Source: Labedaea sp. (lineage in GTDB: Bacteria; Actinomycetota; Actinomycetes; Mycobacteriales; Pseudonocardiaceae). From it: a stretch of 64,000 bases of DNA. A model generated the notes under the pieces. That model had not been told where the DNA came from. It searched no databases and worked only from the letters and a program-made list of their open reading frames with translations. Below are positions 18,863-58,671 of the stretch, piece by piece. Where the stretch lies: the NCBI GenBank assembly GCA_045806965.1, contig JBJMIG010000059.1, positions 2,656 to 66,655 of the forward strand, read 5' to 3'. A program made the translations under genes and the position numbers. How positions within the stretch are numbered: position 1 is the first letter of the stretch; every line of letters starts with the position of its first letter.

Positions 18863-18985
18863 AAGCGGAAGGTGACATTCCGCGGTTCGCACCGCGGAAT
18901 GTCACCTTGCGCGGTATGGCCGAGCGATCCGAAGCTGGTGCGACAGCCGCCCGAGCGAGGAACGAGCGAGGGCAGAAGATACCGC
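18863..18985. repeat. composite palindromic repeat, locus R2 (2 inverted cores plus tail)
   Basis: GCGGAAGGTGACATTCCGCGG-ttcgca-CCGCGGAATGTCACCTTGCGC, followed by a tail whose reverse complement is GTATCTTCTGCCCTCGCTCGTTCCTCGCTCGGGCGGCT. Confidence 0.85.
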
Positions 18986-18988
18986 CGG

Positions 18989-19726
18989 TCAGCCGCCGAC
19001 GAGTCCGATGACGAAGGTGGACGCGGCGTTCTGGTAGCGGTTGAGGTACGTCAGGTGCACGTTGACGCTGTTCCCGCTGTCGCAGAAGGTGTCGTTGCTG
19101 TCGCACCAGGCGTGGATCCGGTTGGCGAAGCCGGCGAGCACGCCGAGTTGCGTGTTGCTGCGCGGGAACAGGCCGTTGCGGCGCGAGGTGCCGAGGTCGA
19201 ACGCCTGGTTCACGACGTGCCTCGGGTCACCGAAGGTCGCCACGGCGGTGACATGGCTGGCGACCGCCGAGGAGATCGGTGGGGTGGTGGCGCCGAGGGA
19301 TCCGCCACCACCCCCGCCGAGCACGTCGAGCACGACGTGCGCCCCCTGGGAATACCCGGCCAGCACGATCTTTTGGCTGGGGCAGGCATTCACCTGGTTG
19401 GTCAGCTGGGTCTTCAAGGCTGACACACCCTGTGCGGAGCTGTTGGCGTAGTTGTTCAGGGTGGCCGGGTAGTTCACCGAGGCCCGGCTCACGGTTTGCC
19501 TGCTGTCGTTGACGATCTGGGTGACCAGCGCGCCGGTGACGCCCTCACCCGGCGCCTCGGTCGAGGCCCGCGCGGTGATGACGTGTACCGCCGCGCAACC
19601 GGTGCCCGGCGCGGGAATCGCGCTGGCCGGACTGGTCACGACGGCGGTCAGGGCCAGGCCGGTCGCGCCGGCGGCGAGCAGGGTGGCCAGCCGGCGCCGG
19701 CTCGGGGTGCGAGGTGTGGTTTCCAC
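18989..19726 (-). CDS. secreted cutinase-family hydrolase
   Basis: GTG 19726 after GGAG. Arg-rich signal (SRRRLATLLAAG). Cutinase nucleophile motif GYSQGA and conserved Cys pairs. Confidence 0.8.
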   Translation of the reverse strand: METTPRTPSRRRLATLLAAGATGLALTAVVTSPASAIPAPGTGCAAVHVITARASTEAPGEGVTGALVTQIVNDSRQTVSRASVNYPATLNNYANSSAQGVSALKTQLTNQVNACPSQKIVLAGYSQGAHVVLDVLGGGGGGSLGATTPPISSAVASHVTAVATFGDPRHVVNQAFDLGTSRRNGLFPRSNTQLGVLAGFANRIHAWCDSNDTFCDSGNSVNVHLTYLNRYQNAASTFVIGLVGG

Positions 19727-19845
19727 AGGGGTACTCCGGTGTGTCCGGGCAGCGTGGGCGCGACACCTCCATGCCGGCCAGCTGCGGCCAGTTTCTCGGG
19801 CACCTTCCTGTTTAGTGCAACGATTTCCGCCTGGCATCGGCGAAA

Positions 19846-20328
19846 TTACTGGTCGGTTAACCGAAATTGCAGCTCGGTCTCCCATTTGGACATATCGGGC
19901 TGAATGGCCGGATCGGTCAGATACACCTCAAGCCGGCAGCCCCAATGATTTCCGGACCGGTCCCACACCAGGCCCCGCTCCGCCGCCCAGCCGAGCAGCG
20001 CGGCCGTCGCGTCGCGCAACCCGTCCGGATGCCCGTGGTGCGTGACGGTCACGTACCGCCCGCCCGGCAGCGTCCCGGCGATCAGCTCGCCGGATACCTC
20101 GACCGGCACCTCCACCGGCACCCCGACCTCGAGTTCGAGCTCGGCCGCCATGTCGATCACGTTGTACCGGAAGAACGGCGCGCCGGCCGGTTCGATCCCG
20201 CGCGCCCCCAGCCAGCCGAACACGTCGGGCAGCCGATCGGCGATCCTGCCGATGGTCCGCATGGTGACGGTTCCGGGCAGCGACACGTAGCCCCGGTCGG
20301 GCAACTCCACAATGGTCGGTTCGGTCAT
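19846..20328 (-). CDS. GyrI-like small-molecule-binding domain protein
   Basis: 160 aa with two-lobed GyrI-like/effector-binding pattern (GRYVTVTHHGHPDGL ... EVYLTDP). Confidence 0.7.
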   Translation of the reverse strand: MTEPTIVELPDRGYVSLPGTVTMRTIGRIADRLPDVFGWLGARGIEPAGAPFFRYNVIDMAAELELEVGVPVEVPVEVSGELIAGTLPGGRYVTVTHHGHPDGLRDATAALLGWAAERGLVWDRSGNHWGCRLEVYLTDPAIQPDMSKWETELQFRLTDQ

Positions 20329-20362
20329 GCGTCCAGCTGTAGGGCCGGCCCCTGGGTCAGAG

Positions 20363-21874
20363 TCAAGTTCGCTTGCCGTGCAGCAAGGTGATGAGCTTGG
20401 CCACCCGCGCGTCGGTCTTCGGCGTGCGGGAGAACGTGGTCAGCGTCATCATCGGCTTGAACCGTTGGCGCGCAATGGCTTTCGCGCGGGTGAACTCCTT
20501 GAGCCCCTCCGGGCCGTGGATCCGGCCGAACCCGGACTCGCCGACGCCGCCGAACGGCAGGCTCGGGATGCCCGCGAAGCTGATCACCGAGTTGACCGAG
20601 GTCATGCCGGACCGCAGCCGCCGGGCCAACTCCATCCCGCGCCGCTTGGAGAACACGGTCGCGGCCAGGCCGTACCTGGTGGCGTTGGCCTTGGTGACGG
20701 CCTCCTCCATGTCGGCCACCTTGGCGATGGTCAGCGTGGGCCCGAACGTCTCCTCGGTCACCGCGACGGAGTCCTCCGGCACGTCGACCAGCACGGTCGG
20801 CTGGACGAACCGGTCACCGACCGCGTCCGCGCCGCCGACCAGCGCCCGGCCGCCCCTGGCCAGCGCGTCGGCGATGTGCCGGCGGATCACCTGGAGCTGC
20901 CCAGGCATGGTGATCGGGCCGATCTGCGCGGCCTCGTCGGACCCGGCCCGCACCTGCTTGGAGATCGCCACCACCTTGTCCACGAACGAGTCGTAGACCT
21001 GTTCGTGCACGTAGACCCGCTCGACCCCGACGCAGGTCTGCCCGGCGTTGGACATGCCGCCCCAGACCGCGGCATCCGCCGCCGCGTCGAGATCGGCGTC
21101 CGCGTCCACCAGCAGCGCGTCCTTGCCGCCGGCCTCGATCAGCACCGGTGTCAGCGTCTCCGCGCAGGCCGCCATGATCTTGCGTCCGGTGCCCGGCGAG
21201 CCGGTGAACGCCAGCTTGTCCACACCCGCGCGGCACAGCGCCGCGCCGGTCTCGCCGAAGCCGGTGAGCAGTTGGAACACGGGCTGCTCCGGCACGATGT
21301 CGGCGAAGCTGTCCACCAGCCACCTGCCGACGCCCGGAGTGTATTCGCTCGGCTTGAACACCACGGCGTTGCCGGCGGCCAGCGCGTACACGATCGAGCC
21401 CATCGGGGTGAACACCGGATAGTTCCACGGCCCGATCACGCCGATCACGCCGAGCGGCTGGTACTCGACCGTGGCCGCCTGGTTGGACATCAGCAGGCCG
21501 GCGGAGCGCTTCTGCGGGCCGAGCACCTTGCTCGCGTGCTTGGCGGCCCACGCGGTGTGGTCGATGGCCAGCACGATCTCCAGCATCGCGTCGCCGTGCG
21601 GCTTGCCGGTCTCCGCGTGCACCACCTCGGCCAGCTGGCCGGCCCGGCGGGTGATCATGCCCTTCCACCGGCGCAGCCGCTCGGCCCGGCCGGCGAAGCC
21701 GAGGCCCTGCCACCAGGCAGCGGCCTCGTGGGCCCGCGCGACGGCGGCGGCGACCTCGTCGGCGGTGTTGACCGGGTGGGTGCCGACCACCTCGTCGGTG
21801 GCCGGGTTGAGCGAGTCGAACGTGCTCCGGGCGGCCTCGTCGGCACCCGCGGGCTTGGTCTGCACGCTGGTCAT
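20363..21874 (-). CDS. NAD(P)-dependent aldehyde dehydrogenase
   Basis: Start at ATG 21874 (MTSVQTK...). ALDH motifs FTGSPGTGRKIM, EAGGKD, catalytic Cys in NAGQTCVGVERV. Confidence 0.9.
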   Translation of the reverse strand: MTSVQTKPAGADEAARSTFDSLNPATDEVVGTHPVNTADEVAAAVARAHEAAAWWQGLGFAGRAERLRRWKGMITRRAGQLAEVVHAETGKPHGDAMLEIVLAIDHTAWAAKHASKVLGPQKRSAGLLMSNQAATVEYQPLGVIGVIGPWNYPVFTPMGSIVYALAAGNAVVFKPSEYTPGVGRWLVDSFADIVPEQPVFQLLTGFGETGAALCRAGVDKLAFTGSPGTGRKIMAACAETLTPVLIEAGGKDALLVDADADLDAAADAAVWGGMSNAGQTCVGVERVYVHEQVYDSFVDKVVAISKQVRAGSDEAAQIGPITMPGQLQVIRRHIADALARGGRALVGGADAVGDRFVQPTVLVDVPEDSVAVTEETFGPTLTIAKVADMEEAVTKANATRYGLAATVFSKRRGMELARRLRSGMTSVNSVISFAGIPSLPFGGVGESGFGRIHGPEGLKEFTRAKAIARQRFKPMMTLTTFSRTPKTDARVAKLITLLHGKRT

Positions 21875-23307: not shown

Positions 23308-23576
23308 TCAACCCAGCGAAATCAGAAAGGCCCGCCACCCCGAGCGGTCGATGGACAGTTCGCCGACGGTGGGATTCTTCGAGTCCCGAACCCCCACCCG
23401 CTGGGCACCACCCCGGCCCACCTCGACACAGTTGGTGTTCTCGCCGCTGAAACTGCTCTTGTGCCAACCGACTTCGACGCAGTCGGTGTTGCTGTCGCTC
23501 AAACTGCTCTTGTGCCAGGCGATCTCGACACAGTTGGTGTTGCTGTCGCTGAAGCTGCTCTTCCGCCAGGTGGTCA
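23308..23576 (-). CDS. DUF397 domain protein with a triplicated N-terminal motif
   Basis: GTG 23576 after GAAGGAAGGGG. Three tandem copies of W[RH]KSS[FL]S..NT[ND]CVE[IV] followed by VRDSKNPTVGELSIDRSGWRAF. Lies downstream of an XRE gene, as is usual for this family. Confidence 0.75.
23417..23569. repeat. 3 x 51-bp in-frame tandem repeat inside the DUF397 gene
   Basis: Units 23417-23467, 23468-23518 and 23519-23569. Each encodes one W[RH]KSS[FL]S..NT[ND]CVE[IV][AG] motif. Confidence 0.85.
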
Positions 23577-23599
23577 CGGCCGGAACCCCTTCCTTCGGG

Positions 23600-24460
23600 T
23601 CACACCAGGCCGGCCGCGATCGTGCGCAGCACCTCGGCCGAGCGATCCGGAGCGTGTGCGACCGACAGCAGGCCGTCCCAGGCCAGCTTATAGGCCTGGA
23701 CATCCCCTGGGGCGTCCAGATACAGGCTGGCCACCTTGTTCTCCAGATGGACGATGCTCGGCAGCCGGGCATAGTCCATCACCACGAACGGACCGTTCAT
23801 CCCGGAATGTGCGCCGACCTCGCGAGGAATCAGCCGGATCGTGATGCCGCGCCGGCCCGCCGACTCGATCAGATACCCGATCTGCTCCCGCATGACGTCG
23901 GAGCCGCCGACCCGCTGGTGCAGCGCCGCCTCGTGCAACACCACGTCGAGGCGCGGCGACCGGGGCTGCCGCAGCAATGCCTGCCGGCTGATTCGTGCCG
24001 CAACCCGGTCGTCCACGACCTGTTCGGACAGGCTCAGATCGGCGGCCTGGATGACCGCTCTGGCGTAGGGGAAGGTCTGTAGCAGGCCGGGGACCAGCAG
24101 CGGCTCGTAGTTGTAGAGCACGGTGGCGTCCTGCTCGAAGCCGATCCACTTCTCCAGGTCCTCGTGTACCTGCAACTGGCCCCGGTCCAGGAAGCCCGGC
24201 TTCAGCGCCTCCCCGTGCAGTTCCATCATGGCCGCCCGGACCGACCGGGACGCGCCGTAGATGGTCAGCAACGAGGCCAGGTCGTCCCGGCTGATTCCGC
24301 GCTTGCCCGACTCGGCCCGGGAGATCGTGCTCGGCGACACCCCGATCCGCTTCGCCACCTGCGACATGGTCAGCCCGGCGTCCACCCGCAACCGGCTCAG
24401 CACCATGCACAGGCGGCGGGTCCGCACGGTGTGGCTCGTCCTGTCCTTCACCCGTGCCAC
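23600..24460 (-). CDS. XRE-family HTH regulator (WhiJ/AbaA-like, DUF5753 C-terminal domain)
   Basis: HTH LTMSQVAKRIGVSPSTISRAESGKR. Start uncertain (GTG 24460 or 24451). The track start at 24544 is probably over-extended. Confidence 0.8.
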   Translation of the reverse strand: MARVKDRTSHTVRTRRLCMVLSRLRVDAGLTMSQVAKRIGVSPSTISRAESGKRGISRDDLASLLTIYGASRSVRAAMMELHGEALKPGFLDRGQLQVHEDLEKWIGFEQDATVLYNYEPLLVPGLLQTFPYARAVIQAADLSLSEQVVDDRVAARISRQALLRQPRSPRLDVVLHEAALHQRVGGSDVMREQIGYLIESAGRRGITIRLIPREVGAHSGMNGPFVVMDYARLPSIVHLENKVASLYLDAPGDVQAYKLAWDGLLSVAHAPDRSAEVLRTIAAGLV

Positions 24461-33688: not shown

Positions 33689-34854
33689 TCAGTAGCCGAC
33701 GTAACCGCCACCGCCGTGGATCGCCTTGATGCCCGGCACGTTGCCGAGCGAACCGTAGCGGCTGACCGAGTAGCGGACGCCGGCGATGATGTTGTCCACC
33801 GGGTTCCAGATGTCGTTGTGGCCGGGCAACTTGTGCGCGTTGAACGTGGAGTCGATGCACTGCATCAGGCCCTTGGACGGGTGACCGGCCGCCGCGTTGG
33901 AGTCCCACAGGTTGATCGCCTTGGGGTTGCCGCCGGACTCGTGCTGGATGATCTGCCAGATGTACTGGGCGTCGGCCTCGCTGACGTTGATCCCGTTCTG
34001 ACGCAGGATCTCGATCGCCTGCTTGATCCACTCCTGGACGTTGCCCGGCGGCGGGCCGCCGGTCGGGGGACCGCCGCTCGAGCCGAGGCCGCCACCTCCT
34101 CCGCCGCCGCCACCGGTGGGACCACCGCCACCACCGCCGGTCGGGCCGCCGCCCGCCGCACCGGCGCCGGTGCCGGTGCTGCCGTTGCCGCCGCTGCCCG
34201 GGGGCGGGCTGTCGGTGGTACCGGACGGCGCGGTCTGGCCGGGCGGTGTCGGCGTCCACTCGATCGGTGTGCCGGGTTGCGGGGTGAACGGCTGGGTGTT
34301 CGGGTCGGACATCGAGGAGAACGTGCTGGCCGGGCTGGCCGCGCCGGCCAGTGTCCCGGCCGCGGCGCTCAGCACGGCCTCGGTGCCGTCGAGGTGCTTG
34401 CGGATGTCCCCGGCGGCCTCGCCGCAGATTTCCCTGGTGTACCCGTCGAGCTGGGCCTGGTCGGCGTCCTTGTGGTTGCGGAGCCAGGTGTTGATCTCGG
34501 TGAGCGCCTGGTCGCAGCGGGTCTGGACATAGCTCTTGGCGCTGGTGAGGCCTCCGCCACCTTGTTGAGCGCACCGGCCGCCTGGGTCATCGCGCCGCCG
34601 ACGTCCGTGCCGGCCTTGCCGAATCGGTCCATGTAGGCGACGAACTGGTCCGCCGAGGTGCCCTCCCAGGCGGCGTCGAGGCCGCGGACCGCCTTGCCGA
34701 CCGCACCGGCGTTGGCGCTGGCGTTGGTGGCCGCGGTGGACAACCGGGCAGCCGCCGCCGCGACCGCTCCCGGGTCGGCGTTGTCCACCTTGCTCGCCTG
34801 AGCGGTCACCAGGTCGCCGCCCGCGTACCTGGCCAGGTCACCCGCCGCGCTCAC
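33689..34854 (-). pseudogene. WXG100-like N-terminal domain fused to a Pro/Gly-rich linker and a C-terminal lytic transglycosylase (SLT/GH23), interrupted by a 1-nt frameshift near 34548-34553
   Basis: Frame A runs from GTG 34854 and reads ...LDAAWEGTSADQFVAYMDRFGKAGTDVGGAMTQAAGALNKVAEA. It then degenerates into low-GC3 junk. Frame B becomes GC3-rich and protein-like from the same point (LTSAKSYVQTRCDQALTEINTWLRNHKDADQAQLDGY...) and ends in IIQHESGGNPKAINLWDSNAAAGHPSKGLMQ. Confidence 0.6.
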
Positions 34855-35162
34855 AGCAGCCTCACCTCTGGGGTCATCGAACGGACGTTGTTGTCCTCGG
34901 TGTTCTGCACGCTCCGCACCACCGCGTCCAGCGACCGCGCCACCTGGTCCAACGTGTTCTCCGCGGCGGTGAACTCCTTGTGCATCGCGGAGTTCAGCGC
35001 GTCGACGGCGCGGGCCACCGCGGCCGAACTCGTCAGCTCGCCGTACGCCGCGGCATTCCCGCCGCCCTCCGGGAACGTGTCCGCGATCTCGCCGAACTTC
35101 GGCTTGTAGTCCTGCGCCCGGCGCATGCAGTCGTTGATCGCCTCGATGTTGTAACTGGGCAC
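34851..35162 (-). CDS. EspC/DUF2580-like small helical type VII secretion-associated protein
   Basis: 103 aa from GTG 35162 (GGAGGG 9 nt upstream). Central AAYGEL motif and helical flanks, as in EspC-like proteins. Stop overlaps the start of the next gene (GTGA). Confidence 0.55.
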   Translation of the reverse strand: MPSYNIEAINDCMRRAQDYKPKFGEIADTFPEGGGNAAAYGELTSSAAVARAVDALNSAMHKEFTAAENTLDQVARSLDAVVRSVQNTEDNNVRSMTPEVRLL

Positions 35163-35235
35163 GTTGGCACACCCTCCACGCTCGCTCCGGTTCGGACGCG
35201 ACGGCGCGCCGCGAGGTTCCCGCCACACCGCCTCC

Positions 35236-35345
35236 GCGGTTTCGTTCGCTCCGTTCGCTCGCTCCGGTTACAGCGCAAGGTGACCTTCCTGCGCTTCTAA
35301 CAGCGCAATGTCACCTTGCGCTGTAAACGAACGGCGCTGTATCCC
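35236..35345. repeat. composite palindromic repeat, locus R3 (2 cores)
   Basis: ACAGCGCAAGGTGACCTTCCTGCGC (35270-35294), TTCTA, ACAGCGCAATGTCACCTTGCGCTGT (35300-35324). Preceded by CGTTCGCTCGCTCC-type tail sequence. Confidence 0.85.
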
Positions 35346-35356
35346 GGGCGGGCCGA

Positions 35357-36124
35357 TCACACCTCGTCCAGTAGTTCCCGGACGAAGCCGGCCAGCATGG
35401 CGTTGTCCGCCGGGGTGACGGTGCTCCAGGTCTTCCCCGCGTTGTTGGGCCTGGTCAGGTAGGCGTAGCGGCCTTCGGGGGTGTCGTGGAAGGCGACCAC
35501 CCGGTCGGCCCGGCGGACCTGCTGGTCGCGCGGGCGGCGCTCCACACCGAACTGGCCCCTGGCGGCCATGCCGGCCAACATCGCGGCAAGGCCCTGGGCG
35601 TCCAGTTGGGAGACTCCCTTGTCCCGCAGGAAACTCGCGAGCTGCTGCGGGGTCTCGGCGCGGGCGTCGGCGGCGTGTAGCAGGTCGGTGTCGACACTGA
35701 CCGAGAAGCCGCGGCCGGCCGGAACCACTCCGGCCACCGACACCGCGGCCTCGGCCAGTGCGGTTGGCCTGGCCGGGATCAGCCACACCTCGCGCGGCTC
35801 GACCACGGCGAGCAGGCCCTGGCCGTTGGCGGTGACCGCGAGCGAGGAGATCTCGCGGTCGGTCCAGACCCAGCTGTCGATGCTGAACCCGGGATACGCC
35901 AACAGGTTCAGCCAGTCAGCGAGCTCCGCCTTGGCGCGCTCGCCCTCGGCCAAGCCGCGCCGCTCGAGATCGTCGAACGCGGTACGGCGCAGTTGGGCCC
36001 GCTCGGTGTGGGTCCGGCCGGGACTGACCATGGTGAGCGCGACGTGCCTCGGTGGCAGCCGCTGCGCCTCCCACAGCACGTCGAACTCCAGCGTGGACAG
36101 CACCACGCTGCCGGTTGCCGGCAC
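35357..36124 (-). CDS. espG: ESX secretion-associated chaperone EspG
   Basis: 255 aa. N-terminal LSTLEFDVLWEAQRLPP hallmark of the EspG family. Immediately downstream of the PPE-like gene. Confidence 0.8.
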   Translation of the reverse strand: MPATGSVVLSTLEFDVLWEAQRLPPRHVALTMVSPGRTHTERAQLRRTAFDDLERRGLAEGERAKAELADWLNLLAYPGFSIDSWVWTDREISSLAVTANGQGLLAVVEPREVWLIPARPTALAEAAVSVAGVVPAGRGFSVSVDTDLLHAADARAETPQQLASFLRDKGVSQLDAQGLAAMLAGMAARGQFGVERRPRDQQVRRADRVVAFHDTPEGRYAYLTRPNNAGKTWSTVTPADNAMLAGFVRELLDEV

Positions 36125-36139
36125 GGTCGTCAGCCCTCG

Positions 36140-37405
36140 TCAGCCCTCGTCGTCATCGTCACCGATCAGCGCGGGCGCGATCGGCCGGTAGTCCTCGAAC
36201 ACGTCCGCCGACTCGACCCCGTACTTGCGCACATGCTCGCCGTCCTCCTCGTCCGGGGCGTTGCCGGTGGCCGGCTGGAGGATCGAGCTGGCCGCCGGTT
36301 TGGGTGATCGCGCGCCGAACTTCTCGGCGTTGCGCACGCTGCGGGCCTCCTCGGGCGGCTCCTGGGCGAGCGGTGACTTCGGTGCGCCGCCTCGACCCTC
36401 GCGCTCCGCTTCGGCGACGCCGCCGCCGGGCGCACCACCCGCGCCCGGCCGGCCGCGCACCAGGCGGTCCTTCTCGGTGGTCGCACCAACCGCCGCACCT
36501 TGCGCTCCCGCGCCGGCGATCGCGGCCGCGTCGGCGACCAGGAGGGAGGGAACCGCACGCGGGCCGAATCCCGGTGCACCCTCGACCGGAAGGCCGGTCG
36601 GCAGCGGCAACACCGGTCCGACGCCGGTTCGTGGACCCGGCTGGCCTGGCAGGCCTACCGGGCCGGGCCCGGGCGCCGGGCCGCCGGGCTGACCGCCGAG
36701 CAACGGCGCTGCTCCCGAGCCGCCGGGGGCCGGTGCGGAGCCAGGGGCGCCGGGTGGTTGGCCAGGAGCGCCCGGGGTGAAGCCGGACCCGCCATGGAAG
36801 CCGTCCACCGGGCCGACCTGGGTTCCGGTGGCGGACTGCTGCGTGACCAGCCCGACGCCGGGCGGGACCGGGAGTGTCTGCACCCCGCCGATGGCTGAGG
36901 AGCTGGCCGACTGGTATCCGTTCAGGCCGGCGATCGCCTGGTCCCGCGCGGCACCGGTGGACGCGACATCCTTGGCGTGGTCGGTGGTGTGCCCGAGCAG
37001 GCCGGCGAACCGGTCGAACCCGTCAAGCTGGGTGGGCCCGCGCAAGGTGCCCGAGTCCGGCGCGCTGTTTCGGGTGTGCGCGAACGATCCGCTCTGGTTC
37101 GACACGCCCTTGGCCGACTCCCCGACCGGCGTCACCGCGTCCTCGGCAAAGACGGAAGCCTGCTTGGTGGCCGCGGTTCCGCCGTCCGCCGCCTGGCCCT
37201 GCCAGGACACCCCGATCTGCTGCAACTGCTCGCGCAGCACCCGGTCCGTCTCGGCCAACCCCCCGGCAAGCGCGATGAGTGCGCGCGCGGCGTTGTGCAA
37301 ACTCTCCGACCCGGCCCCGTTGCGCAACCCGTCGACCTGCTCGGCCAAGGCCTGGTTGTCGTATCCCTCGAACCGCAGGTCGTCGAGCCCGTAGTCGCCG
37401 TCCAT
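36140..37405 (-). CDS. PPE-like domain protein with a long Pro/Gly-rich C-terminal region
   Basis: ATG 37405 after GAGGTGAGG. N-terminal helical PPE-like domain (FEGYDNQALAEQVDGL ... IGVSWQGQAADGG, containing WxG) followed by a low-complexity PG-rich tail. Confidence 0.75.
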   Translation of the reverse strand: MDGDYGLDDLRFEGYDNQALAEQVDGLRNGAGSESLHNAARALIALAGGLAETDRVLREQLQQIGVSWQGQAADGGTAATKQASVFAEDAVTPVGESAKGVSNQSGSFAHTRNSAPDSGTLRGPTQLDGFDRFAGLLGHTTDHAKDVASTGAARDQAIAGLNGYQSASSSAIGGVQTLPVPPGVGLVTQQSATGTQVGPVDGFHGGSGFTPGAPGQPPGAPGSAPAPGGSGAAPLLGGQPGGPAPGPGPVGLPGQPGPRTGVGPVLPLPTGLPVEGAPGFGPRAVPSLLVADAAAIAGAGAQGAAVGATTEKDRLVRGRPGAGGAPGGGVAEAEREGRGGAPKSPLAQEPPEEARSVRNAEKFGARSPKPAASSILQPATGNAPDEEDGEHVRKYGVESADVFEDYRPIAPALIGDDDDEG

Positions 37406-37414
37406 TGCCTCACC

Positions 37415-38053
37415 TCACTTCAACGTTCGCAACGTCTGCACGGCCAACCCGGCCGCCTGTTCGGCCCGTTGGCACAATTCATCAAGCGTGAACGTATGGT
37501 TCCCGTCATTGTCGGTGTTGACCATCAACTGCTGCCCTTCGGCCACATCGACCGACGTGCTGCAATCAGGAGTGTTGTGGCCATTCGCGCCGCGAAACCA
37601 ATAGGTGGCAGCCGGATAGGTCTCCACCGAGGCGAGCCTCGCTTCGACATTTCTCTTGCCACCCAACCACGGCCCTATACCTTCGTTGGTTACCAGTGTC
37701 ACGGCGAACTCGTAGTACGGCGGCTGCCGCTGCACGCTGAGGATGCATTCCGGCATGCCGTTGTACTGCTGCGATTTGTTGGTCGAATTTCGGACCCGGT
37801 TCGCCTTCAGCTGATCCCGTTGCGGCTCGGTGAACAGTGCGCACGGGTCGAGCCCGTCCAGCCTCAACTCCTTGGGCCGCGGCGGAATCTGCACCGATGA
37901 TGACGGGCGCCCCGAGGACGAGTTCGGCGACTGACCGGAGGTGCCAACCGATGTCGCACCGGGCGGCGGCGCGGGCTCGCCGGCCTCGCTCCGGGTGCAA
38001 CCAGCCACGGCGAGCAGCCCGGCCAGAGCCAACACCGCCGGGCAGCTACGCAC
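37415..38053 (-). CDS. DUF3558-like secreted lipoprotein
   Basis: GTG 38053 gives MRSCPAVLALAGLLAVAGC (lipobox). LDPCALFTEPQRDQL motif and conserved Cys pairs resemble DUF3558. The start overlaps the upstream stop (GTGCGTAG). Confidence 0.7.
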   Translation of the reverse strand: MRSCPAVLALAGLLAVAGCTRSEAGEPAPPPGATSVGTSGQSPNSSSGRPSSSVQIPPRPKELRLDGLDPCALFTEPQRDQLKANRVRNSTNKSQQYNGMPECILSVQRQPPYYEFAVTLVTNEGIGPWLGGKRNVEARLASVETYPAATYWFRGANGHNTPDCSTSVDVAEGQQLMVNTDNDGNHTFTLDELCQRAEQAAGLAVQTLRTLK

Positions 38054-38444
38054 CCCTTGTACCACCGAACGCGGCCGCCACCTCTTCGTCGGTGTACCCG
38101 TATGCCTTCGCGCTGTCCCCGCATTGCCGCGCCAGCTTGTACAAGCCGTCGATGTACTGCTTGATCCGATTGGCATAGGAGTTCTCGTGCTCCACGAGGA
38201 GGTCATTCCAAGCCGGCGCGATCCGGATGCTGACGTCGTCGTCGCCCGGCGGCACGACCCGCAGGTCGCCATACCCAGTCCGCAGCTTTTCGTGGAGAAC
38301 GTCCGCCTGGGTTTGGATGATTTTGGCGGCGGCCAGGACGTTGTCCTTGCTCACCGCGAAGGTGTTGGTGGTGAGGGTGGTTGCCTGGTCGAGTTGGGCG
38401 AAGGCGGTGCTGAGTCCCTGGCCGATCTCGCCTGGAAGTTCCAT
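38046..38444 (-). CDS. PE-like helical hairpin protein (non-mycobacterial PE domain)
   Basis: 132 aa, GGGGAGG RBS. PGDDDVS motif comparable to the PE AADEVS region. C-terminal YGYTDEE matches the YxxxD/E export motif. Confidence 0.55.
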   Translation of the reverse strand: MELPGEIGQGLSTAFAQLDQATTLTTNTFAVSKDNVLAAAKIIQTQADVLHEKLRTGYGDLRVVPPGDDDVSIRIAPAWNDLLVEHENSYANRIKQYIDGLYKLARQCGDSAKAYGYTDEEVAAAFGGTRGA

Positions 38445-44184: not shown

Positions 44185-47100
44185 GTGGGCTTCGGTGAGG
44201 AGCTGCGGGTTCGGCGAGTCCGGGCCGGGTTGACCCAGCGGGACTTGGCGCAGCGGGCCGGGGTGAGCGTGCGGGCGGTGCGCTACATCGAGCAGGGACG
44301 GGTGGCCCGGCCGCGATCCGAGTCACTGCGGCGGTTGGGCGAGGCGGTCGGGCTCAGCGTCGACGGCGCTGCGCGGGTGTCGATCAGGGTGCTCGGCCGG
44401 CTCGACGCGGACCGGGGCGGGCGGACGTTGGACATCGGCACCTACAAGCCGAGGGCCCTGCTCGGGCTGCTTGCGCTGCGCGCCAACACCATCGTGTCGC
44501 AGGCCGAGATCGTCGACGGGCTGTGGGGCGACGCACCGCCGGAAAGCTGCCAGAACCTGGTGCACACCTACGTCTCGCGACTGCGCCGGGTGATCGGCCC
44601 GGATCTGTTGCGCTCCGCGCGGCTCGGCGGGTACCGGCTTGACGTCGAGCCGGACCAGCTTGACCTGCTTCGGTTTCGCGAGCTGACCGAGCGCGCCGAC
44701 CAGGCGCGGCACCGCGAGCCGCGGCTCGCCGCCGCGCTGTTCGAGCAGGCGCTCGACCTCTGGCGCGGGCCGCTGCTCGACGACCTGCCGGCCGGCATCC
44801 GGACGCACCCGGTGGCCACCGCGATCAGCGCCCGGCGACTGGGGACCGCGCTGCACTACGCCGATCTCGCCGCCCCGGCAGGGCGCGCGGTGACCCGGCT
44901 GCGCGCGCTGACCGGCGAGGAGCCGCTGCACGAGGGGCTGCACGCCCGGCTGATGCTGGCCCTCGCCGGCTCCGGTGAGCAGGCCGCCGCGCTGCGGCTG
45001 TTCACCGAGATCCGGTCGCGGTTGGCCGACGAGCTCGGGGTCGGGCCGGGAGCCGAGATCCGGGCCGCGCACCTGTCCATCCTCCGACGCTCGGAGTCCA
45101 CAGTAGACCGAATGCGTGCCCCGGCGCAGTTGCCCGCCGACGTGGCCGGGTTCGCCGGGCGGGCCGAGCACCTTGGCCGGCTGGACGCACTGCTCGGCGG
45201 CCGGGAGCGAGACACCGCGGTGCGCATCGCGGTGATCACCGGAACCCCCGGCGTCGGGAAGACCGCGGTCGCGGTGCACTGGGCGCACCGGGTGCGCAAG
45301 GAGTTCCCGGACGGCCAGTTGCACGTGGACCTGCGCGGGTACACGGGCGGACCGCCGGTGCGGCCGCTCGAGGCGTTGACCCGGTTCCTGCGCGCGCTCG
45401 GCGTGCCGGCCGAGCGCGTGCCGGTGGACCCGGAGGAGGCGGCCAACCTCTACCGCACCCAGCTCGCCGACCGCAGAGTCCTTGTCCTGCTTGACAACGC
45501 GGCCAGTGCGGACCAGGTCCGCCCGCTGCTGCCCGGCAACCCCGGCTGCCTGGTGGTGGTGACCAGCCGAGACCGGCTGACCGGACTGGTGGCCCGGGAG
45601 GGCGCGCACCGGCTCGGTCTCGACGTGCTCGACGAGGACGACTCGACCGCGCTGCTGGCCCGCATGCTCGGCACCGGCCGGGTGCGCGCCGAACCGCAGG
45701 CGGCCGCCGAGCTGGGCCGGATCTGCGCGCACCTCCCGCTGGCCCTGCGGATCGCCGCGGCCAACCTGGGCACCGCGCCGGGCCGCCGGATCTCCGACCA
45801 CGTCACCGAACTGCGCGCGCACGGCCGGGTGATCTCCACCGACGAGAGCGACCGGGGCGCGGTCCGCGCCGCGTTCGAAACCTCCTACGCCCGGCTGGAG
45901 CCAGGCACCCGCCGGATGTTCCGGTTGCTCGGCCTGGTTCCCGGGCCGGACTTCACCACGGACGCCGCCGCCGCGCTGGCCGGCGGCTCGGTGGACGGCG
46001 CGCGCCGCGCGGTAGGCCAACTCGCCGCCGCGCACCTGGTCGCGGCGCCGGCCGCCGGCCGTTACCAGTTCCACGACCTGCTCCGGGACTACGCCGCCGG
46101 CCTGGCCAGGTTCGAGGACGCCGACGAGTGCGACTCCGCGGTGGACCGGTTGCAGGACTTCTACCTGCACACCGCGGACCGGGCCACCCGGCTGCTCTAC
46201 CCGTCCGCGCTGCGGCTGCCGGCCGGCCCGGGCACCAGCCGGGTCACGCTCGACTCCGAGCGTGCGGCGATCGACTGGCTTGAGGCCGAGCGGGCGAACC
46301 TGGTCGCTGCCACCGGGCCCGGGTTCGGCGTGCCGAGCTACGCCTGGCGCATCGCTGACACCCTGCGCGGCTGGTTCGTCAGCCGGGGACACGGCGCGGA
46401 CGGGCTGGCCGTCTGCCGAACCGCACTGGCCGCCGCCGAGCGGGCCGGGGACCAGGCCGGCCAGGCGTCGGCGTACGACGTGCTCGGGCTGACCCACTAC
46501 AACCTCGGCGAGCTGCGCCGGGCCATCGCCTGCCACGCCGAGGCGCTGGCCATCAGCCGGCGGATCGGGAATCCGGCCGCCGAGGCCAGCGCGCTGCACA
46601 ACGTCGGCCGGGCCTGCGCGCATCTCGGCCAGCCGGCCCGCGCGATCCGTTTTCACCAGGAGGCGCTGGAGATCAACCGGCGGATCGGGAACCGGCACGG
46701 CGAGGCGATGACGCTCAACTACCTCGGCTCGGCGGCGCTGGTGCTCGGCTCCCCTGGCAGGGCCAGGGCCTGCTCCATCGCGGCGTTACGCCTGGCCAGG
46801 GAGATCGGCGACCGGTACGTGCAGGTCCGTGCGCTGAACAGTCTCGGCCTGATCCACTGGGCCGCGATGGGGGGCTATCCGGCCGCCGAGGGCTACTTCA
46901 CCAGGGCGCTGGCGCTCGCCAGGGAGATCGGCTTCTGCTACGGCGAGGCCTCCGTCCTCATCGGACTGTCCAGGGTGTGCCGGTGCACCGGGCGGCCGGC
47001 CGAGGCGATCGGGTACTGCGCCGAGGCACTGGCCGTCATGCGCGACCGCGGCATCCGGCTGTTCGAGGGCCGGGCGCTGACCGAACTCGCCCAGGCGCAC

Positions 47101-47334
47101 CTTCAGCTCGGCGACGTCGGCGCGGCGGCGGCGCACGCCGGGCAGGCGCTGGACGTGGTACGCGACCGCGAGCAGCGGCTGATCGAGGCCCGCGCGCTCC
47201 AGGTGCTGGGGTTGGCCAGGAAGGCCGGCGGCGAGGGCGACGCGGCGCGCGCCCACTGGCGGGCGGCGCTGGCGATCTACACCGACATCGGCGCGCCCGA
47301 GGAGCGAACGGTGCGCACCCTGCTCGCCGCGTAG
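44185..47334 (+). CDS. XRE-HTH / SARP (OmpR-type winged helix + BTAD) / NB-ARC ATPase / TPR multidomain regulator
   Basis: N-terminus LRVRRVRAGLTQRDLAQRAGVSVRAVRYIEQG (XRE HTH). Then the SARP DNA-binding and BTAD region (LLDLLRFRELTERA...), P-loop GTPGVGKTAVA, and multiple C-terminal TPR-like repeats. Confidence 0.85.
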   Translation: MGFGEELRVRRVRAGLTQRDLAQRAGVSVRAVRYIEQGRVARPRSESLRRLGEAVGLSVDGAARVSIRVLGRLDADRGGRTLDIGTYKPRALLGLLALRANTIVSQAEIVDGLWGDAPPESCQNLVHTYVSRLRRVIGPDLLRSARLGGYRLDVEPDQLDLLRFRELTERADQARHREPRLAAALFEQALDLWRGPLLDDLPAGIRTHPVATAISARRLGTALHYADLAAPAGRAVTRLRALTGEEPLHEGLHARLMLALAGSGEQAAALRLFTEIRSRLADELGVGPGAEIRAAHLSILRRSESTVDRMRAPAQLPADVAGFAGRAEHLGRLDALLGGRERDTAVRIAVITGTPGVGKTAVAVHWAHRVRKEFPDGQLHVDLRGYTGGPPVRPLEALTRFLRALGVPAERVPVDPEEAANLYRTQLADRRVLVLLDNAASADQVRPLLPGNPGCLVVVTSRDRLTGLVAREGAHRLGLDVLDEDDSTALLARMLGTGRVRAEPQAAAELGRICAHLPLALRIAAANLGTAPGRRISDHVTELRAHGRVISTDESDRGAVRAAFETSYARLEPGTRRMFRLLGLVPGPDFTTDAAAALAGGSVDGARRAVGQLAAAHLVAAPAAGRYQFHDLLRDYAAGLARFEDADECDSAVDRLQDFYLHTADRATRLLYPSALRLPAGPGTSRVTLDSERAAIDWLEAERANLVAATGPGFGVPSYAWRIADTLRGWFVSRGHGADGLAVCRTALAAAERAGDQAGQASAYDVLGLTHYNLGELRRAIACHAEALAISRRIGNPAAEASALHNVGRACAHLGQPARAIRFHQEALEINRRIGNRHGEAMTLNYLGSAALVLGSPGRARACSIAALRLAREIGDRYVQVRALNSLGLIHWAAMGGYPAAEGYFTRALALAREIGFCYGEASVLIGLSRVCRCTGRPAEAIGYCAEALAVMRDRGIRLFEGRALTELAQAHLQLGDVGAAAAHAGQALDVVRDREQRLIEARALQVLGLARKAGGEGDAARAHWRAALAIYTDIGAPEERTVRTLLAA

Positions 47335-54771: not shown

Positions 54772-55053
54772 ATGGCTACCGCACAGTGGAACGGTGAGAT
54801 CATCGCCGAGAGCGAGCAGACCGAGATCGTCGAAGGCAACCACTACTTCCCGATCGAGTCGGTACGCACCCAGTTCCTGCGCCCCTCCGAGACCCACACC
54901 ACCTGCCCGTGGAAGGGCGAGGCGAGCTACTACACGCTGAGCGTGAACGGCGCGGAGAACCCGGACGCCGCCTGGTACTACCCGGAGCCGAAGGAAGCCG
55001 CGGCCCAGATCAAGGACCACGTCGCCTTCTGGAACGGCGTCGAAGTCAGCTGA
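54772..55053 (+). CDS. DUF427 domain protein
   Basis: ATG 54772 after GGAGG. AQWNGEIIAESEQTEIVEGNHYFP ... CPWKGEASYY pattern. Confidence 0.75.
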   Translation: MATAQWNGEIIAESEQTEIVEGNHYFPIESVRTQFLRPSETHTTCPWKGEASYYTLSVNGAENPDAAWYYPEPKEAAAQIKDHVAFWNGVEVS

Positions 55054-55490
55054 GCTGTATCTTCTGCCCTCGCTCGCAGGCTCACTCGGGCGGCTCGCGG
55101 CCTTCGAGCCGACTCGCACGGCTGCGGATCGCGGCTCGTTGGGGTAGAGCGCAAGGTCACCTTCATGCGCTTCTAAACGCGCAAGGTGACAGGTCTTCTG
55201 CGCTCACTCGCAGGCTCGTTCGCGCGGCTCGCGGCCGCTGAGCCGATGTCTTCCCTCCTGCGCTGCTCACTCGCTCGTTCCTCGCTCGCTGCGCTGCTCG
55301 TCGGTCCAGACACCGGCCGGCCGACTCGCACGGCTCCGGATCACGGCCCGTTGGGGTAGAGCGGAAGGTCACCTTCATGCGGTTCTTGACGCGCAAGGTG
55401 ACATTCCGCTGTATCTCTGCGCTCGCTCACTCGCAGGCTCGTTCGCGCCGCTCGCGGCTTTGGCGCCGGTGCGTGAGTTCTGCGCTTGGC
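55054..55490. repeat. composite palindromic repeat array, locus R4 (4 cores plus about 5 tail modules)
   Basis: 55108-55174 and 55320-55386 are near-identical (CCGACTCGCACGGCTxCGGATCxCGGCxCGTTGGGGTAGAGCGxAAGGTCACCTTCATGCGxTTCT), period about 212 nt. The tail module GTATCTTCTGCCCTCGCTCGCAGGCTC... recurs at about 55056, 55193, 55247 and 55411. Confidence 0.85.
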
Positions 55491-55526
55491 TCTGGTCTAC
55501 CTGGGGCCGGTCCGGCTACATTAATT

Positions 55527-55545
55527 GTTAGGAAGTTTTCCTAAC
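55527..55545. promoter_or_regulatory. perfect 8-bp inverted repeat GTTAGGAA-GTT-TTCCTAAC, CsnR(ROK)-operator-like
   Basis: Lies in a conspicuously AT-rich patch 40 nt upstream of the GH2 start codon. The inner 13-mer AGGAAGTTTTCCT differs at one position from the CsnR box AGGAAANTTTCCT as I recall it. Confidence 0.5.
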
Positions 55546-55584
55546 CAATGTTCCGGTAACCGGTGCACGATCCAGGAGGGCGCC

Positions 55585-58500
55585 GTGGAGTTCCCTGCCA
55601 TCCCGAAGAGGTTTCCCTCGATCCTGGCCGCGACGATGCTCGTGGCGGCCGGCCTGGCCGTGCCGCCGGCCGCGGCGGCCGCACCAAGCGCCACGGTCAC
55701 GGTGACCGCCGCACCCGGCGAGTCCACCGCCATCCCCGGCTTCCTGCTCCGCTCGTCGGCTGCCACCCCGGACGACGGCGCGACGATCTCCACCCCGGGC
55801 TACCGTACCGCCGGCTGGCTGCCGGTCCCGGCCCGATCCACGGTGTTCGCCGGCCAACTGGCGAACGGCCAGTTTCCCAACCCGTACTTCTCCACCAACA
55901 TGCGCAACGTCCCGACCGCGGACTACACCGTGCCGTGGTGGTACCGCGCGGACCTCACCCTCGGCAGCGAGACCGGCCTGCGCACCTACCTGAACCTGAC
56001 CGGCGTCCTGGCCAGGGCCGACGTGTTCGTCAACGGCAGCCAGATCGCCGGCAACGCCGAGGTGGCCGGCGCCTACACCACCCACGAGTTCGACGTGACC
56101 GCCCTGGTGCGCGCCGGAACGAACAGCCTCGCGGTGAAGGTCTACCCCAACGATCCCAACCGGGACCTGACCATGGGCTGGATCGACTGGCTACAGACCC
56201 CGCCGGACCGGAACATGGGGATCGTCCGCGACGTGCTGGTGCACCGCGGCGGCGGCGTGGCGCTGCGCGACACGCACGTGGTCACCGTACTCAACGCGGC
56301 CAGGGACCGGGCCAGCCTCACGGTGAAGACCCAGGTGCGCAACGACACCAGCGGATCGTTGTCCGCCATGCTCACCGGAACCGTTGCGGGACAAACACTC
56401 GCTCAGACCGTCAGCCTGGCCGCGCACGAGACCCGGACGGTCAGCTTCCCCGTGGTCACGGTGCCGAACCCGGCGCTGTGGTGGCCGGCCGGGATGGGTG
56501 CGCAGTCGAGGTACGACCTCGACCTGTCCGCCTCGGTGTCCGGCGGCGTCTCGGACACCGCGCACGAACGGTTCGGTGTTCGTGAGGTCAAGGCGGTGCT
56601 GGACGGCAGCGGGCACCGGCGCTACAGCGTCAACGGCCGGCCGCTCCTGATCAAAGGCGGTGGCTGGTCGCCGGACCTGTTGCTGCGCTGGGATTCCCGC
56701 TATGTCGAGGACAAGCTGCGCGCCGTGCTCGACCTGGGGCTCAACACCGTCCGGCTGGAGGGGCACATCGAGTCCAGTGACTTCTTCGACCTCACCGACC
56801 AACTCGGCATCCTCACCATGCCCGGTTGGGAATGCTGCGACAAGTGGGAAGGCGAGGTGAACGGCAGCGAGCCGGGTGAGCGCTGGACCTCGGCCGACTT
56901 CGTCACCGCTAAGGACTCCATGGCCGCCGAGGCGCGGCTGCTGCGCGACCACCCGTCGGTGATCTCGTTCCTGATCGGCAGCGACTTCGCGCCCAACGCC
57001 ACCCAGGAACGCAACTACCTCGACGCGCTCACCGCCGCCGACTGGCCGAACCCGGTCATCGCCTCGGCCGCAGACCGGTCCGCGCCGGTCAGCGGCAACT
57101 CCGGGATGAAGATGAACGGCCCGTACGACTGGATTCCGCCGAACTACTGGTACGACAAGGCGCACTCGGACGGCGGCGGCGCATGGGGCTTCGCCTCGGA
57201 GATCAGCGCCGGGCCGGACGTGCCGACCATGGACACGCTGCGCCGGATGATGACCACCAGCGAGCTGAACACGTTGTGGCAGAACTTCAACGCCACCCAG
57301 TACCACCGCTCGCAGTCCAGCACGTTCAACACCTTGAAGATCTTCGACAACGCACTGGTTGGCCGCTACGGCACGGTTTCCAGCCTGGACGACTACGTGC
57401 GCAAGGCCCAACTCGCCCAGTACGAGAACGTGCGCGCGCAGTTCGAGGCCTACGGTCGCAACTTCACCGACTCCAGCAACCCGGCCGACGGGGTCATCTA
57501 CTGGATGCTCAACAGCGGCTGGACCTCGCTGCACTGGCAGTTGTTCGACTACTACCTCGACCAGAACGGCGCCTACTACGGCGCGAAGAAGGCCGGCGAG
57601 CCGCTGCACGTGCAGTACTCCTACGACAACCGCGGCGTCGTGGTGGTGAACTCCAGGCACGGCGCGGCATCCGGGCTCACCGCGCGGGTCGATCTGTTCA
57701 ATGTGGACGGCACGAGCAAGTTCTCCCAGACGGCCAGCGGGCTGACCGCGCCCGGCGACGGCGGACGGGTGACCGCGTTGACCATCCCGGCTTCGGTCAG
57801 CGGGCTCTCCACCACCTACCTGGCCCGGCTACTGCTGATCGACTCGTCCGGCGCCGAGGTCAGCCGAAACGTCTATTGGCTCTCCACCAAGGCCGACGTG
57901 ATCGACTGGGCGAACAACGACTGGTTCTTCGCGCCCACCACCGCGTTCGCCGATCTCAAGGGCCTCGCCGGCATGGCGGCCGCGCCGATCTCGGCGACCG
58001 CGTCCACGGCCACCTCGGGCGAGGTCACCACGACCCGGGTCACGCTGCGCAACACCGGAACCGGCCGCACACCCGCGCTCTACCTGGACGCGCACGTGCT
58101 GGCCGGGGGCACCCCGGTGTTGCCGATCTCGTGGAACGACAACGCGGTCAGCCTGTGGCCCGGCGAGTCAACCACGCTCACCGCCAGCTACCGCACCACC
58201 GACCTGCACGGTGCGGCACCGTCGGTGCGCATCGCCGGCTGGAACACCGCGCCGTTGACCATTCCCGGCGACGGCGGCACCCCGCCATCGGTGCATCGCC
58301 ACGAGGCCGAGGACGCACAGCTCTCCCAAGGGGTGGCCGAGGCGAACCACACCGGCTTCTCCGGCACCGGCTTCGTCAACTACGACAACGTCGCCGGCGG
58401 CTTCGTCCAGTTCACCATCACCCCGGCGACCGCCGGTCCGGCCACGCTGACCCTGCGCTACAGCAACGGAACCGCCACCAACCGGCCGATGGACGTCACG

Positions 58501-58671
58501 GTGAACGGCACCACGGTGGCCACCGCGGTGTCCTTCCCGAGCACGACGACCTGGGACAGCTGGGCGAGCGTGACCGTGCCGGCGACGCTCACCGCGGGCT
58601 CGAACACCGTCCGCGCCACGGCCACCACGGCCACCGGTGGTCCCAACCTCGATTACCTGGAAGCCCCCTGA
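55585..58671 (+). CDS. secreted GH2 exo-beta-D-glucosaminidase-like enzyme (CsxA-like) with a C-terminal CBM35/CBM6-type module
   Basis: GTG 55585 after CAGGAGG. Signal peptide. Resembles GH2 exo-chitosanases along its length (YTVPWWYRADL, GWIDWLQTPPDRNMGI). C-terminus HEAEDAQLSQG...NLDYLE is a carbohydrate-binding module. Confidence 0.85.
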   Translation: MEFPAIPKRFPSILAATMLVAAGLAVPPAAAAAPSATVTVTAAPGESTAIPGFLLRSSAATPDDGATISTPGYRTAGWLPVPARSTVFAGQLANGQFPNPYFSTNMRNVPTADYTVPWWYRADLTLGSETGLRTYLNLTGVLARADVFVNGSQIAGNAEVAGAYTTHEFDVTALVRAGTNSLAVKVYPNDPNRDLTMGWIDWLQTPPDRNMGIVRDVLVHRGGGVALRDTHVVTVLNAARDRASLTVKTQVRNDTSGSLSAMLTGTVAGQTLAQTVSLAAHETRTVSFPVVTVPNPALWWPAGMGAQSRYDLDLSASVSGGVSDTAHERFGVREVKAVLDGSGHRRYSVNGRPLLIKGGGWSPDLLLRWDSRYVEDKLRAVLDLGLNTVRLEGHIESSDFFDLTDQLGILTMPGWECCDKWEGEVNGSEPGERWTSADFVTAKDSMAAEARLLRDHPSVISFLIGSDFAPNATQERNYLDALTAADWPNPVIASAADRSAPVSGNSGMKMNGPYDWIPPNYWYDKAHSDGGGAWGFASEISAGPDVPTMDTLRRMMTTSELNTLWQNFNATQYHRSQSSTFNTLKIFDNALVGRYGTVSSLDDYVRKAQLAQYENVRAQFEAYGRNFTDSSNPADGVIYWMLNSGWTSLHWQLFDYYLDQNGAYYGAKKAGEPLHVQYSYDNRGVVVVNSRHGAASGLTARVDLFNVDGTSKFSQTASGLTAPGDGGRVTALTIPASVSGLSTTYLARLLLIDSSGAEVSRNVYWLSTKADVIDWANNDWFFAPTTAFADLKGLAGMAAAPISATASTATSGEVTTTRVTLRNTGTGRTPALYLDAHVLAGGTPVLPISWNDNAVSLWPGESTTLTASYRTTDLHGAAPSVRIAGWNTAPLTIPGDGGTPPSVHRHEAEDAQLSQGVAEANHTGFSGTGFVNYDNVAGGFVQFTITPATAGPATLTLRYSNGTATNRPMDVTVNGTTVATAVSFPSTTTWDSWASVTVPATLTAGSNTVRATATTATGGPNLDYLEAP

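Follow-up and report, generated by a model that had tools for sequence, protein, structure and literature searches.

A lineage-restricted family of palindromic interspersed repeats, probably of the REP/mini-transposon class, in a Labedaea genome contig

Palindromic repeat families are well studied in Proteobacteria and barely described in high-G+C actinomycetes. The 64,000-nt stretch analyzed here, hereafter the window (Labedaea sp., an uncultured soil actinobacterium; assembly GCA_045806965.1, contig JBJMIG010000059.1, positions 2,656 to 66,655), carries a strongly palindromic sequence between the gene for EspG and a small WXG-like gene, and the question is what this sequence is. A first-pass annotation had described it, at window positions 35236–35345, as the type copy of an undescribed interspersed repeat family resembling repetitive extragenic palindromes (REPs) and bacterial interspersed mosaic elements (BIMEs). 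Both the quoted sequence and its place were confirmed. So was the size of the gap, 194 nt between the EspG stop (35357) and the GTG of the downstream gene (35162). In our judgement the sequence probably belongs to a lineage-restricted, non-autonomous family of palindromic interspersed repeats of the REP/REPIN/BIME-MITE class, spread in trans, where REPIN stands for an inverted pair of REPs and MITE for miniature inverted-repeat transposable element. The family is new and uncatalogued, within the familiar REP/mini-transposon class. The assignment to this class follows from the short palindrome, the inverted doublet of fixed spacing, the occurrence of singlets and mosaics, the extragenic sites at gene 3′ ends and the lineage-specific sequence.

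The palindromic units are not a chance product of base composition. The degenerate 19-mer GCGSAAKGTSACMTTSCGC has 6 exact matches in the window against 0 in 100 dinucleotide shuffles, and 10 matches at up to three mismatches against 0.44 expected. Its 11-nt centre, AAKGTSACMTT, occurs exactly 10 times, again against 0 in 100 dinucleotide shuffles, and one further unit is truncated at 55183–55191. The count of 11 copies given in the first-pass annotation is correct for units defined by this centre, but not for the 19-mer itself. The shorter 7-mer KGTSACM has 99 occurrences in the window, of which only 5 are flanked by bases with 6–8 of 8 complementary, and all five fall at the reported repeat loci. 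Four intergenic loci hold these units, arranged as five inverted doublets and a single unpaired copy, the singlet (Table 1). The 9.7 kb doublet lies in the opposite orientation to the type copy, as had been stated, and is 93% complementary to it over 68 nt.

The window is 71% G+C and about 93% coding, and the confinement of the repeats to intergenic loci was upheld by two lines of evidence. Each of the four loci is bounded on both sides by Pfam-supported genes, and no copy lies in a confident coding sequence. A covariance model built from the doublets and run over 207 kb (the window plus about 143 kb of relatives) recovered only the known copies, with nothing else at E < 0.1, and placed none of them inside a gene.

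Each unit is a hairpin of 25–27 nt, with a stem of about 9–11 bp around the nearly invariant centre KGTSACM. The best-conserved part is this centre, which forms the loop, and not the stem. In the singlet, TACAGCGCAA-GGTGACA-TTGCGCTGTA, an 11-bp stem encloses a 7-nt loop. Each of the four complete doublets measures exactly 57 nt, with unit centres 29–30 nt apart, and the same spacing is found at four independent loci from metagenomes or metagenome-assembled genomes (MAGs). The two units of a doublet are mutually inverted, and most copies can form one long hairpin with an 18–19-bp stem and a 19-nt loop. Predicted folds of the doublets as single-stranded DNA (ssDNA) range from -11.6 to -29 kcal/mol, with z-scores of -3.3 to -9, and predicted RNA folds of the copies from -19 to -42 kcal/mol. 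The two alternative folds drawn in the earlier annotation, a 9-bp stem with a 7-nt loop for unit 2 and the pairing of unit 1 with unit 2, both hold.

The covariance analysis suggested for the repeat bears out the long helix. In an alignment of ten doublets, from the window and five other loci, 80.5% of the cells of the long helix are paired, compared with 34–45% when the 3′ partner is slid; unit 2 alone, taken as a helix, has 82.6% of its cells paired. Compensatory changes are found at the unit centres, G-C to C-G in 3 sequences and A-T to C-G in 3 sequences. One such swap separates the orthologous copies of the window and of its closest relative (L095; loci read from relatives and metagenomes carry L numbers). 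On this alignment, the pairing between units is maintained through compensatory changes.

The ends of the element bear on how it may have spread. Most doublet ends read TA-CAG...CTG-TA, with the end form TA-CAGCGCAAGGTGAC. REPs associated with RAYTs (REP-associated tyrosine transposases) are imperfect palindromes of about 20–40 nt in many dispersed copies, with a 5′ GTAG (GT[AG]G) at the foot of the hairpin, and the cognate single-copy RAYT gene is usually flanked by repeats. The first-pass annotation had seen GTAG or GTAC at the head of several copies. GTAG is indeed present, but only at 55144 and 55356 (both 55 kb doublets) and at an internal unit at 9730, and GTAC heads the singlet; the remaining ends are TTAC, TCAC or TAAA, and the consistent feature is a TA followed by C or G.

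Ends of this form also suit a reading of the 57-nt doublet as a minimal MITE of the IS630/Tc1-mariner type, with terminal inverted repeats of 18–19 nt that start with CAG and insertion at TA with duplication of the TA. Such a MITE would be mobilized by a DDE transposase from another part of the genome, and deletion or slippage would have produced the singlet and the arrays. Duplication of TA and a CAG start are features of IS630/Tc1 elements. The four complete copies have exactly the same length and arms of 18–19 nt, about 15 of the 20 scored ends are TA in a genome of 71% G+C, and the most conserved part of the arm (AAGGTSAC) lies inside the inverted repeat, where a transposase-binding site would be. 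The doublet at 18860 has as its left end the TA that opens a TAA stop codon, and its diverged counterpart in a relative (L104/L105) uses the TA of a TAG stop. However, TA...TA merely extends the palindrome and need not be a target duplication, and the empty orthologous gaps (L096, L101, L102, L106 and L107) are too diverged to define a junction. Variation is greater at the outermost bases (CAG, GAG, AAG, CGG) than further in, the opposite of most DDE elements, and 57 nt is unusually small for a MITE. No parent insertion sequence (IS) sharing the doublet ends was found in the 207 kb, and no transposase in the window. We consider such a MITE unlikely, if a serious candidate. The RAYT-REP reading and that of a TA-targeting MITE fit the TA-CAG...CTG-TA ends and the 57-nt length equally well, and the GTAG heads are a weak hint of a RAYT.

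The positions of the copies relative to genes are uniform in one respect. All four loci in the window begin 0–90 nt beyond a stop codon, and each contains a gene 3′ end. In the first, the repeats lie between an IclR-family regulator and a LAL/LuxR regulator, with the singlet upstream of the latter (probable ATG at 9910). In the second, they lie between convergent genes for a GMC oxidoreductase and a cutinase. The third is the EspG gap, where the type copy is 32 nt beyond the EspG stop, with 107 nt between it and the WXG-like start codon. The fourth comprises about 500 nt of repeats between the genes for a DUF427 protein and a GH2 exo-glucosaminidase. A convergent-gene setting occurs at three independent loci, that of the 18.86 kb copy and those of two metagenome contigs (L097, L098). 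At 55 kb the element points the same way as the upstream gene, at 35.2 kb and 9.7 kb the opposite way. This variation between loci counts against a strand-specific RNA gene, and that candidate was rejected.

Since the loci sit 0–90 nt past stop codons, the copies are expected to be transcribed as 3′-untranslated hairpins. Transcription of the upstream gene would run into the element and produce a very stable hairpin at the 3′ end of the transcript. Classic U-tract terminators are scarce in high-G+C actinomycetes. A hairpin of this kind, having no U-tract, would most likely act mainly as a barrier to exonucleases or as a weak, possibly factor-aided, terminator, and between convergent genes it would work in both directions.

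Could the copies be nothing else than ordinary intrinsic terminators or 3′ stabilizer hairpins, alike through shared constraints, with neither family relationship nor mobility? Their positions right after stop codons and their very stable RNA hairpins would agree with this, as would the persistence of the copy at the GMC oxidoreductase stop in a species whose protein is 85% identical. Nevertheless, unlinked loci share identical 25-mers and a 93% match over 68 nt, and the 9.79 kb singlet and the clustered 55 kb units exceed the need of termination. The U-tract is absent as well: a consensus scan of 54900–55700 found no canonical intrinsic terminator, a promoter scan likewise found nothing, and a U run (UUUU) follows only the minus-strand reading of the 18.86 kb copy. 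Unrelated terminators are excluded because of the sequence identity between loci, and we give this explanation as a whole next to no chance.

The relatives show that the family varies in place and in number. The nearest are metagenome contigs and MAGs labelled Actinophytocola, with 77–91% identity in EspG and 81–86% in the GMC oxidoreductase. The closest (JGI sample 3300049002) carries a diverged doublet at the same position of the EspG gap (L095), orthologous to the type copy. Its DUF427 gap (L099) contains five units with a 30-nt period, the first four oriented alike and the fifth inverted. In the Actinophytocola MAG GCA_035942955.1, which has an identical Logan contig (L104/L105) and 85% identity in the GMC oxidoreductase, a strongly diverged doublet lies at the same stop codon; the 29–30-nt spacing and the inter-unit pairing are kept, while the centre reads TGTCACA/TGTGACA and the arms are different. 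In GCA_035762905.1 (33 kb read), GCA_036002505.1, GCA_035712165.1 and two further metagenome contigs, the matching gaps are short, empty or missing.

The exact 23-mer CAGCGCAAGGTGACATTGCGCTG of the main unit, a pattern too strict to sample the family, was found in two public metagenome contigs from one sample (L097, L098), each with a complete doublet between convergent genes. The degenerate 19-mer gave at least 94 single matches at chance level in genome contigs of all phyla, none with a second unit nearby, and this search is uninformative on the distribution of the family. On the sequences compared, the family appears restricted to a narrow lineage and denser in the source genome, with 4 loci in 64 kb; it varies in number and arrangement among relatives, with some sites apparently old.

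Three of the four repeat loci are at or beside differences in gene content between relatives. The GH2 gene of the window (55563–58671) replaces luciferase-like and short-chain dehydrogenase genes of a relative (L100, 10275–12121). The genes downstream of the GMC oxidoreductase (window 18989–20365) differ in each relative examined (L101, L102, L104, L106). With respect to the name of the source organism, its GMC oxidoreductase is 73% identical to that of Labedaea rhizosphaerae, compared with 85–86% to MAGs labelled Actinophytocola, and the genus label Labedaea of the source MAG may be loose.

The contrast between centre and arms raises the idea that a protein may recognize the centre. One form of this idea takes the units as duplex binding sites for a dimeric protein, nucleoid-associated or regulatory, on AAKGT-S-ACMTT, about three helical turns (30 bp) apart, with the similarity of the flanks secondary. 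The centre is far better conserved than the arms (10 of 10 exact in the window; GTSAC kept and arms replaced in L099 and L104), and the spacing stays at 29–31 nt even for the three direct-orientation units in L099. Such a protein site would not account for arms whose complementarity is preserved by compensatory change, a property superfluous in a duplex operator, nor for the 25-nt identity between loci, which exceeds the need of a binding site. The units also lie after stops and between convergent genes, not in promoter regions, and their copy number and arrangement differ among close relatives at the same gap, other gaps being empty. Finally, four known operators were considered (PHO box, MtrA, CRP-like and matS-like), and the motif, its spacing and its 3′ location agree with none of them. 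We hold duplex operators to be decidedly improbable.

Another form of the idea keeps the hairpin. The centre AAKGTSACMTT could be the recognition site of a dedicated protein, either a RAYT-like enzyme or a 3′-end factor that binds the hairpin; it is proposed because the centre is nearly invariant while the arms are replaced in other lineages. We offer it as speculation, with a low probability. If the protein is a RAYT-like enzyme, the repeat would be a vertically inherited replicator of the REPIN type outside the groups where these are mostly described. If it is a hairpin-binding factor, it would be the kind of extra machinery that was proposed, and never found, for the TRIT motifs of mycobacteria.

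A second module, T (for 'tail'), accompanies some of the cores. It begins with TCTTCTGCSCTC, and at 55 kb it is present in three copies and one expanded variant, giving the layout T-core-T-T′-core-T over 55054–55500. Within this cluster the doublet at 55357–55413, taken with the 35 nt upstream of it, repeats the segment 55108–55191 at 92%. The expanded variant (55247–55341) is 80% identical over 76 nt to a purL-purQ intergenic sequence of GCA_036002505.1 (L102/L103, 4057–4128). The CT/CG-rich T module may be a second, more widespread repeat family, independent of the palindromic cores. The earlier statement that a tail module travels with the cores is true at 55 kb and, in inverted form, at 18.9 kb, but not beside the type copy. 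There the CTCGCTCG-like stretch is the leader of the downstream gene, which is conserved at the orthologous locus in L095. The CTCGCTCG-rich stretch at 35182–35268 aligns with that leader and was rejected as part of the element.

Several smaller traces adjoin these clusters. The GCTGTA at 55054–55059 forms the same junction as the right end of a core with a T module and probably remains from a former core. The final DUF427 codons and this GCTGTA together (GTCAGCTGAGCTGTA, 55036–55059) resemble the right arm of a core (GTCACCTTGCGCTGTA), and the DUF427 stop codon may lie in the remnant of an old copy. Beside the type copy, the partial right end at 35334–35341 may be a footprint or the leftover of a third unit. 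In the closest relative, the five-unit cluster of L099 is followed at 5480–5585 by five copies of the 21-nt tandem repeat GAGCGCAGAACTCGCGGGTCT, and the contig ends just beyond. Read on the other strand, the GAGCGCAGAA within this repeat gives the beginning of the T module in the window.

Known catalogues gave no name for the repeat. Rfam 15 had 0 matches at gathering score in the whole window and 0 at E<=5 at the 55 kb locus, and for the type copy only miRNA-precursor models appeared, at 14–22 bits compared with gathering scores of 45–168; as to Rfam, the proposal of an undescribed element is upheld. Viral contigs had no match to the repeat. A plasmid blastn search also gave none, but there an 18-nt repeat could not reach significance. 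The literature on REP, RAYT or MITE in Actinobacteria and Pseudonocardiaceae yielded no description of such an element.

The REP/BIME-like class first proposed can be weighed from these results. Its support lies in repeats that are non-random, intergenic, arranged in inverted doublets, interleaved with the T module, variable among relatives and without an Rfam match. Several points weigh against it. The evidence from the source genome comes from 64 kb, and a Pfam scan of about 56 annotated open reading frames (ORFs) of the window found neither a Y1/RAYT protein nor any other transposase. RAYT-associated REPs typically have a GTAG, which these repeats do not show consistently. The copy at the GMC oxidoreductase stop seems old and kept in place, as expected of a purely functional element. 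No closely related pair of a filled and an empty site was recovered among the relatives, and transposition, as opposed to ancient presence with loss, is inferred. No U-tract follows the hairpins in the 55 kb terminator scan, and the role at 3′ ends is likewise inferred.

Taking the family as a non-autonomous repeat of the REP/REPIN/BIME-MITE class, we propose the following course. A transposase acting in trans, either a RAYT-type Y1 enzyme or a TA-targeting DDE enzyme, would spread copies to new intergenic sites. The sequence within a genome would then be homogenized, or selected to keep the hairpin. Homogeneity within the genome, together with arms that change from one lineage to the next in a hairpin that persists, points to repeated copying or gene conversion among members. 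Doublets could decay into singlets. They could also expand or interleave with the second module to yield BIME-like mosaics, of which the 55 kb locus and the five-unit array of the relative would be examples.

Table 1. Copies and modules of the repeat family in the window (CM, covariance-model score).
Position	Strand	Feature	Remarks
9697–9753	-	57-nt doublet in the opposite orientation to the type copy, 12 nt beyond the IclR-family stop	Left end CA, not TA; CM 80.7 bits
9785–9811	.	Singlet TACAGCGCAAGGTGACATTGCGCTGTA	Stem 11 bp counting flanking G and C; -12.7 kcal/mol; CM 25 bits
18860–18916	+	57-nt doublet, GMC oxidoreductase/cutinase convergent gap	ssDNA -29 kcal/mol; RNA -41.8 and -40.6 on the two strands
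18917–18979	-	Inverted T module, reverse complement starts TCTTCTGCCCTCGCTCG	86% identity over 36 nt to T copy 1; between core TA and another TA
35269–35325	+	Type copy, 57-nt inverted doublet TA-CAGCGCAAGGTGACCTT-[19 nt]-AATGTCACCTTGCGCTG-TA	ssDNA -26.7 kcal/mol, z -9.0; RNA -40.4; CM 86 bits
35334–35341	+	Extra partial right end GCGCTGTA, 8 nt past the type doublet	Within a 21-nt segment missing at the orthologous locus
55054–55059	+	GCTGTA directly after the DUF427 stop	Same junction as core right end/T module (compare 55408–55420)
55060–55144	+	T module copy 1	Repeat comparison
55145–55191	+	Doublet, second unit cut after AAGGTGACA where T copy 2 abuts	CM 52.6 bits
55193–55356	+	T copy 2 (head 55193–55246), then variant/expanded T segment (55247–55356)	Repeat comparison
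55357–55413	+	57-nt doublet	ssDNA -20.2 kcal/mol; CM 69.6 bits
55414–55500	+	T module copy 3	Repeat comparison

The neighborhood of the type copy had been called an ESX island. It is a small cluster (33716–38272) of genes for a DUF3558 protein, a PPE-like protein, EspG, a small WXG-like protein and a probable WXG100/SLT hydrolase, the last assigned from synteny with L095, L096 and L107. The cluster sits amid purine-biosynthesis and housekeeping genes, and no Ecc core component was found among the window ORFs scanned.

Three other repeated or palindromic sequences of the window were noted. The minus-strand ORF at 23308–23772, adjoining an HTH_31/DUF5753 regulator gene, contains three tandem 51-nt repeats (23413–23568) that encode a triplicated W-x-K-S-S-x-S-x-x-N-T-x-C-V-E motif, which we take to be DUF397-like. 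Three 110-nt copies at 46504–46853, spaced 120 nt apart within a BTAD/NB-ARC/TPR regulator gene (44185–47331), are probably the TPR repeats that Pfam detects in that protein, unrelated to the palindromic family. A near-perfect AT-rich palindrome, TTAGGAAGTTTTCCTAA, lies at 55528–55544, just upstream of the GH2 exo-beta-D-glucosaminidase gene, and presumably resembles the CsnR-type operator preceding actinomycete chitosanase and glucosaminidase genes.

Short palindromic repeats influence how transcripts end, how stable mRNA is and how genomes rearrange. Metagenome assemblies break at them too, as in L099, whose contig ends inside the cluster. The family described here would supply a set of candidate 3′-end hairpins, and its members may mark rearrangement junctions, since three of the four loci are at or near differences in gene content. 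If the cognate enzyme is found, the element would make a small, tractable substrate of transposition. As one more lineage-specific REP/MITE-like family, it will mainly interest specialists.

How does the family compare with known systems? The BIMEs of Escherichia coli, described by Gilson, Bachellier and colleagues, are mosaics of REP or palindromic units (PUs) with other short motifs. The 55 kb locus is similar in alternating palindromic units with the T module three to four times, and so is the orthologous locus of the relative, with five units followed by a 21-nt tandem array; the module sequences are unrelated to those of E. coli. Small TA-targeting MITEs share with the present element the terminal inverted repeats, the TA at both ends, the uniform length and the intergenic insertion, and they affect transcripts. 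The Correia elements of Neisseria and MITEs derived from IS630/Tc1 measure about 100–160 nt or more. The present element, at 57 nt, is much shorter, and no parent IS was found in the 207 kb.

Stem-loop repeat families are common and often species-specific (PMC2267715). The closest likeness is to the RAYT-associated REPs and REPINs of Proteobacteria (Bertels and Rainey, PMC3116915, PMC3337134). REPINs are defined as two inverted REPs with a spacer, non-autonomous (PMC3337134). Both they and the present family have a short imperfect palindrome, an inverted doublet with a fixed short spacer and a long hairpin, and both include singlets. Both are extragenic, mostly at gene 3′ ends, with a lineage-specific sequence and positions partly conserved between relatives. 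The present family differs in its actinobacterial host (Pseudonocardiaceae), in lacking a consistent GTAG head and in having its best-conserved part in the centre rather than in the stem. No RAYT gene is found in the 64-kb window, the only part of the source genome read.

Among actinobacteria the nearest parallel is TRIT, a conserved palindromic motif at the ends of Mycobacterium genes (PMC3152330). It was reported to occur in Mycobacterium only, with its centre about 8 nt within the coding sequence (PMC3152330). It is bidirectional, and its authors proposed the need for an extra factor (Gardner et al. 2011, PMC3152330). The present family resembles it as an actinobacterial, sequence-conserved hairpin at gene termini, bidirectional and without the logic of the classic U-tract. 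Going by the published description of TRIT, it differs in starting at or after the stop codon and in its 57-nt doublets. By analogy, a role of the present copies as 3′ hairpins would match both that proposed for the mycobacterial TRITs (PMC3152330) and that known for REPs.

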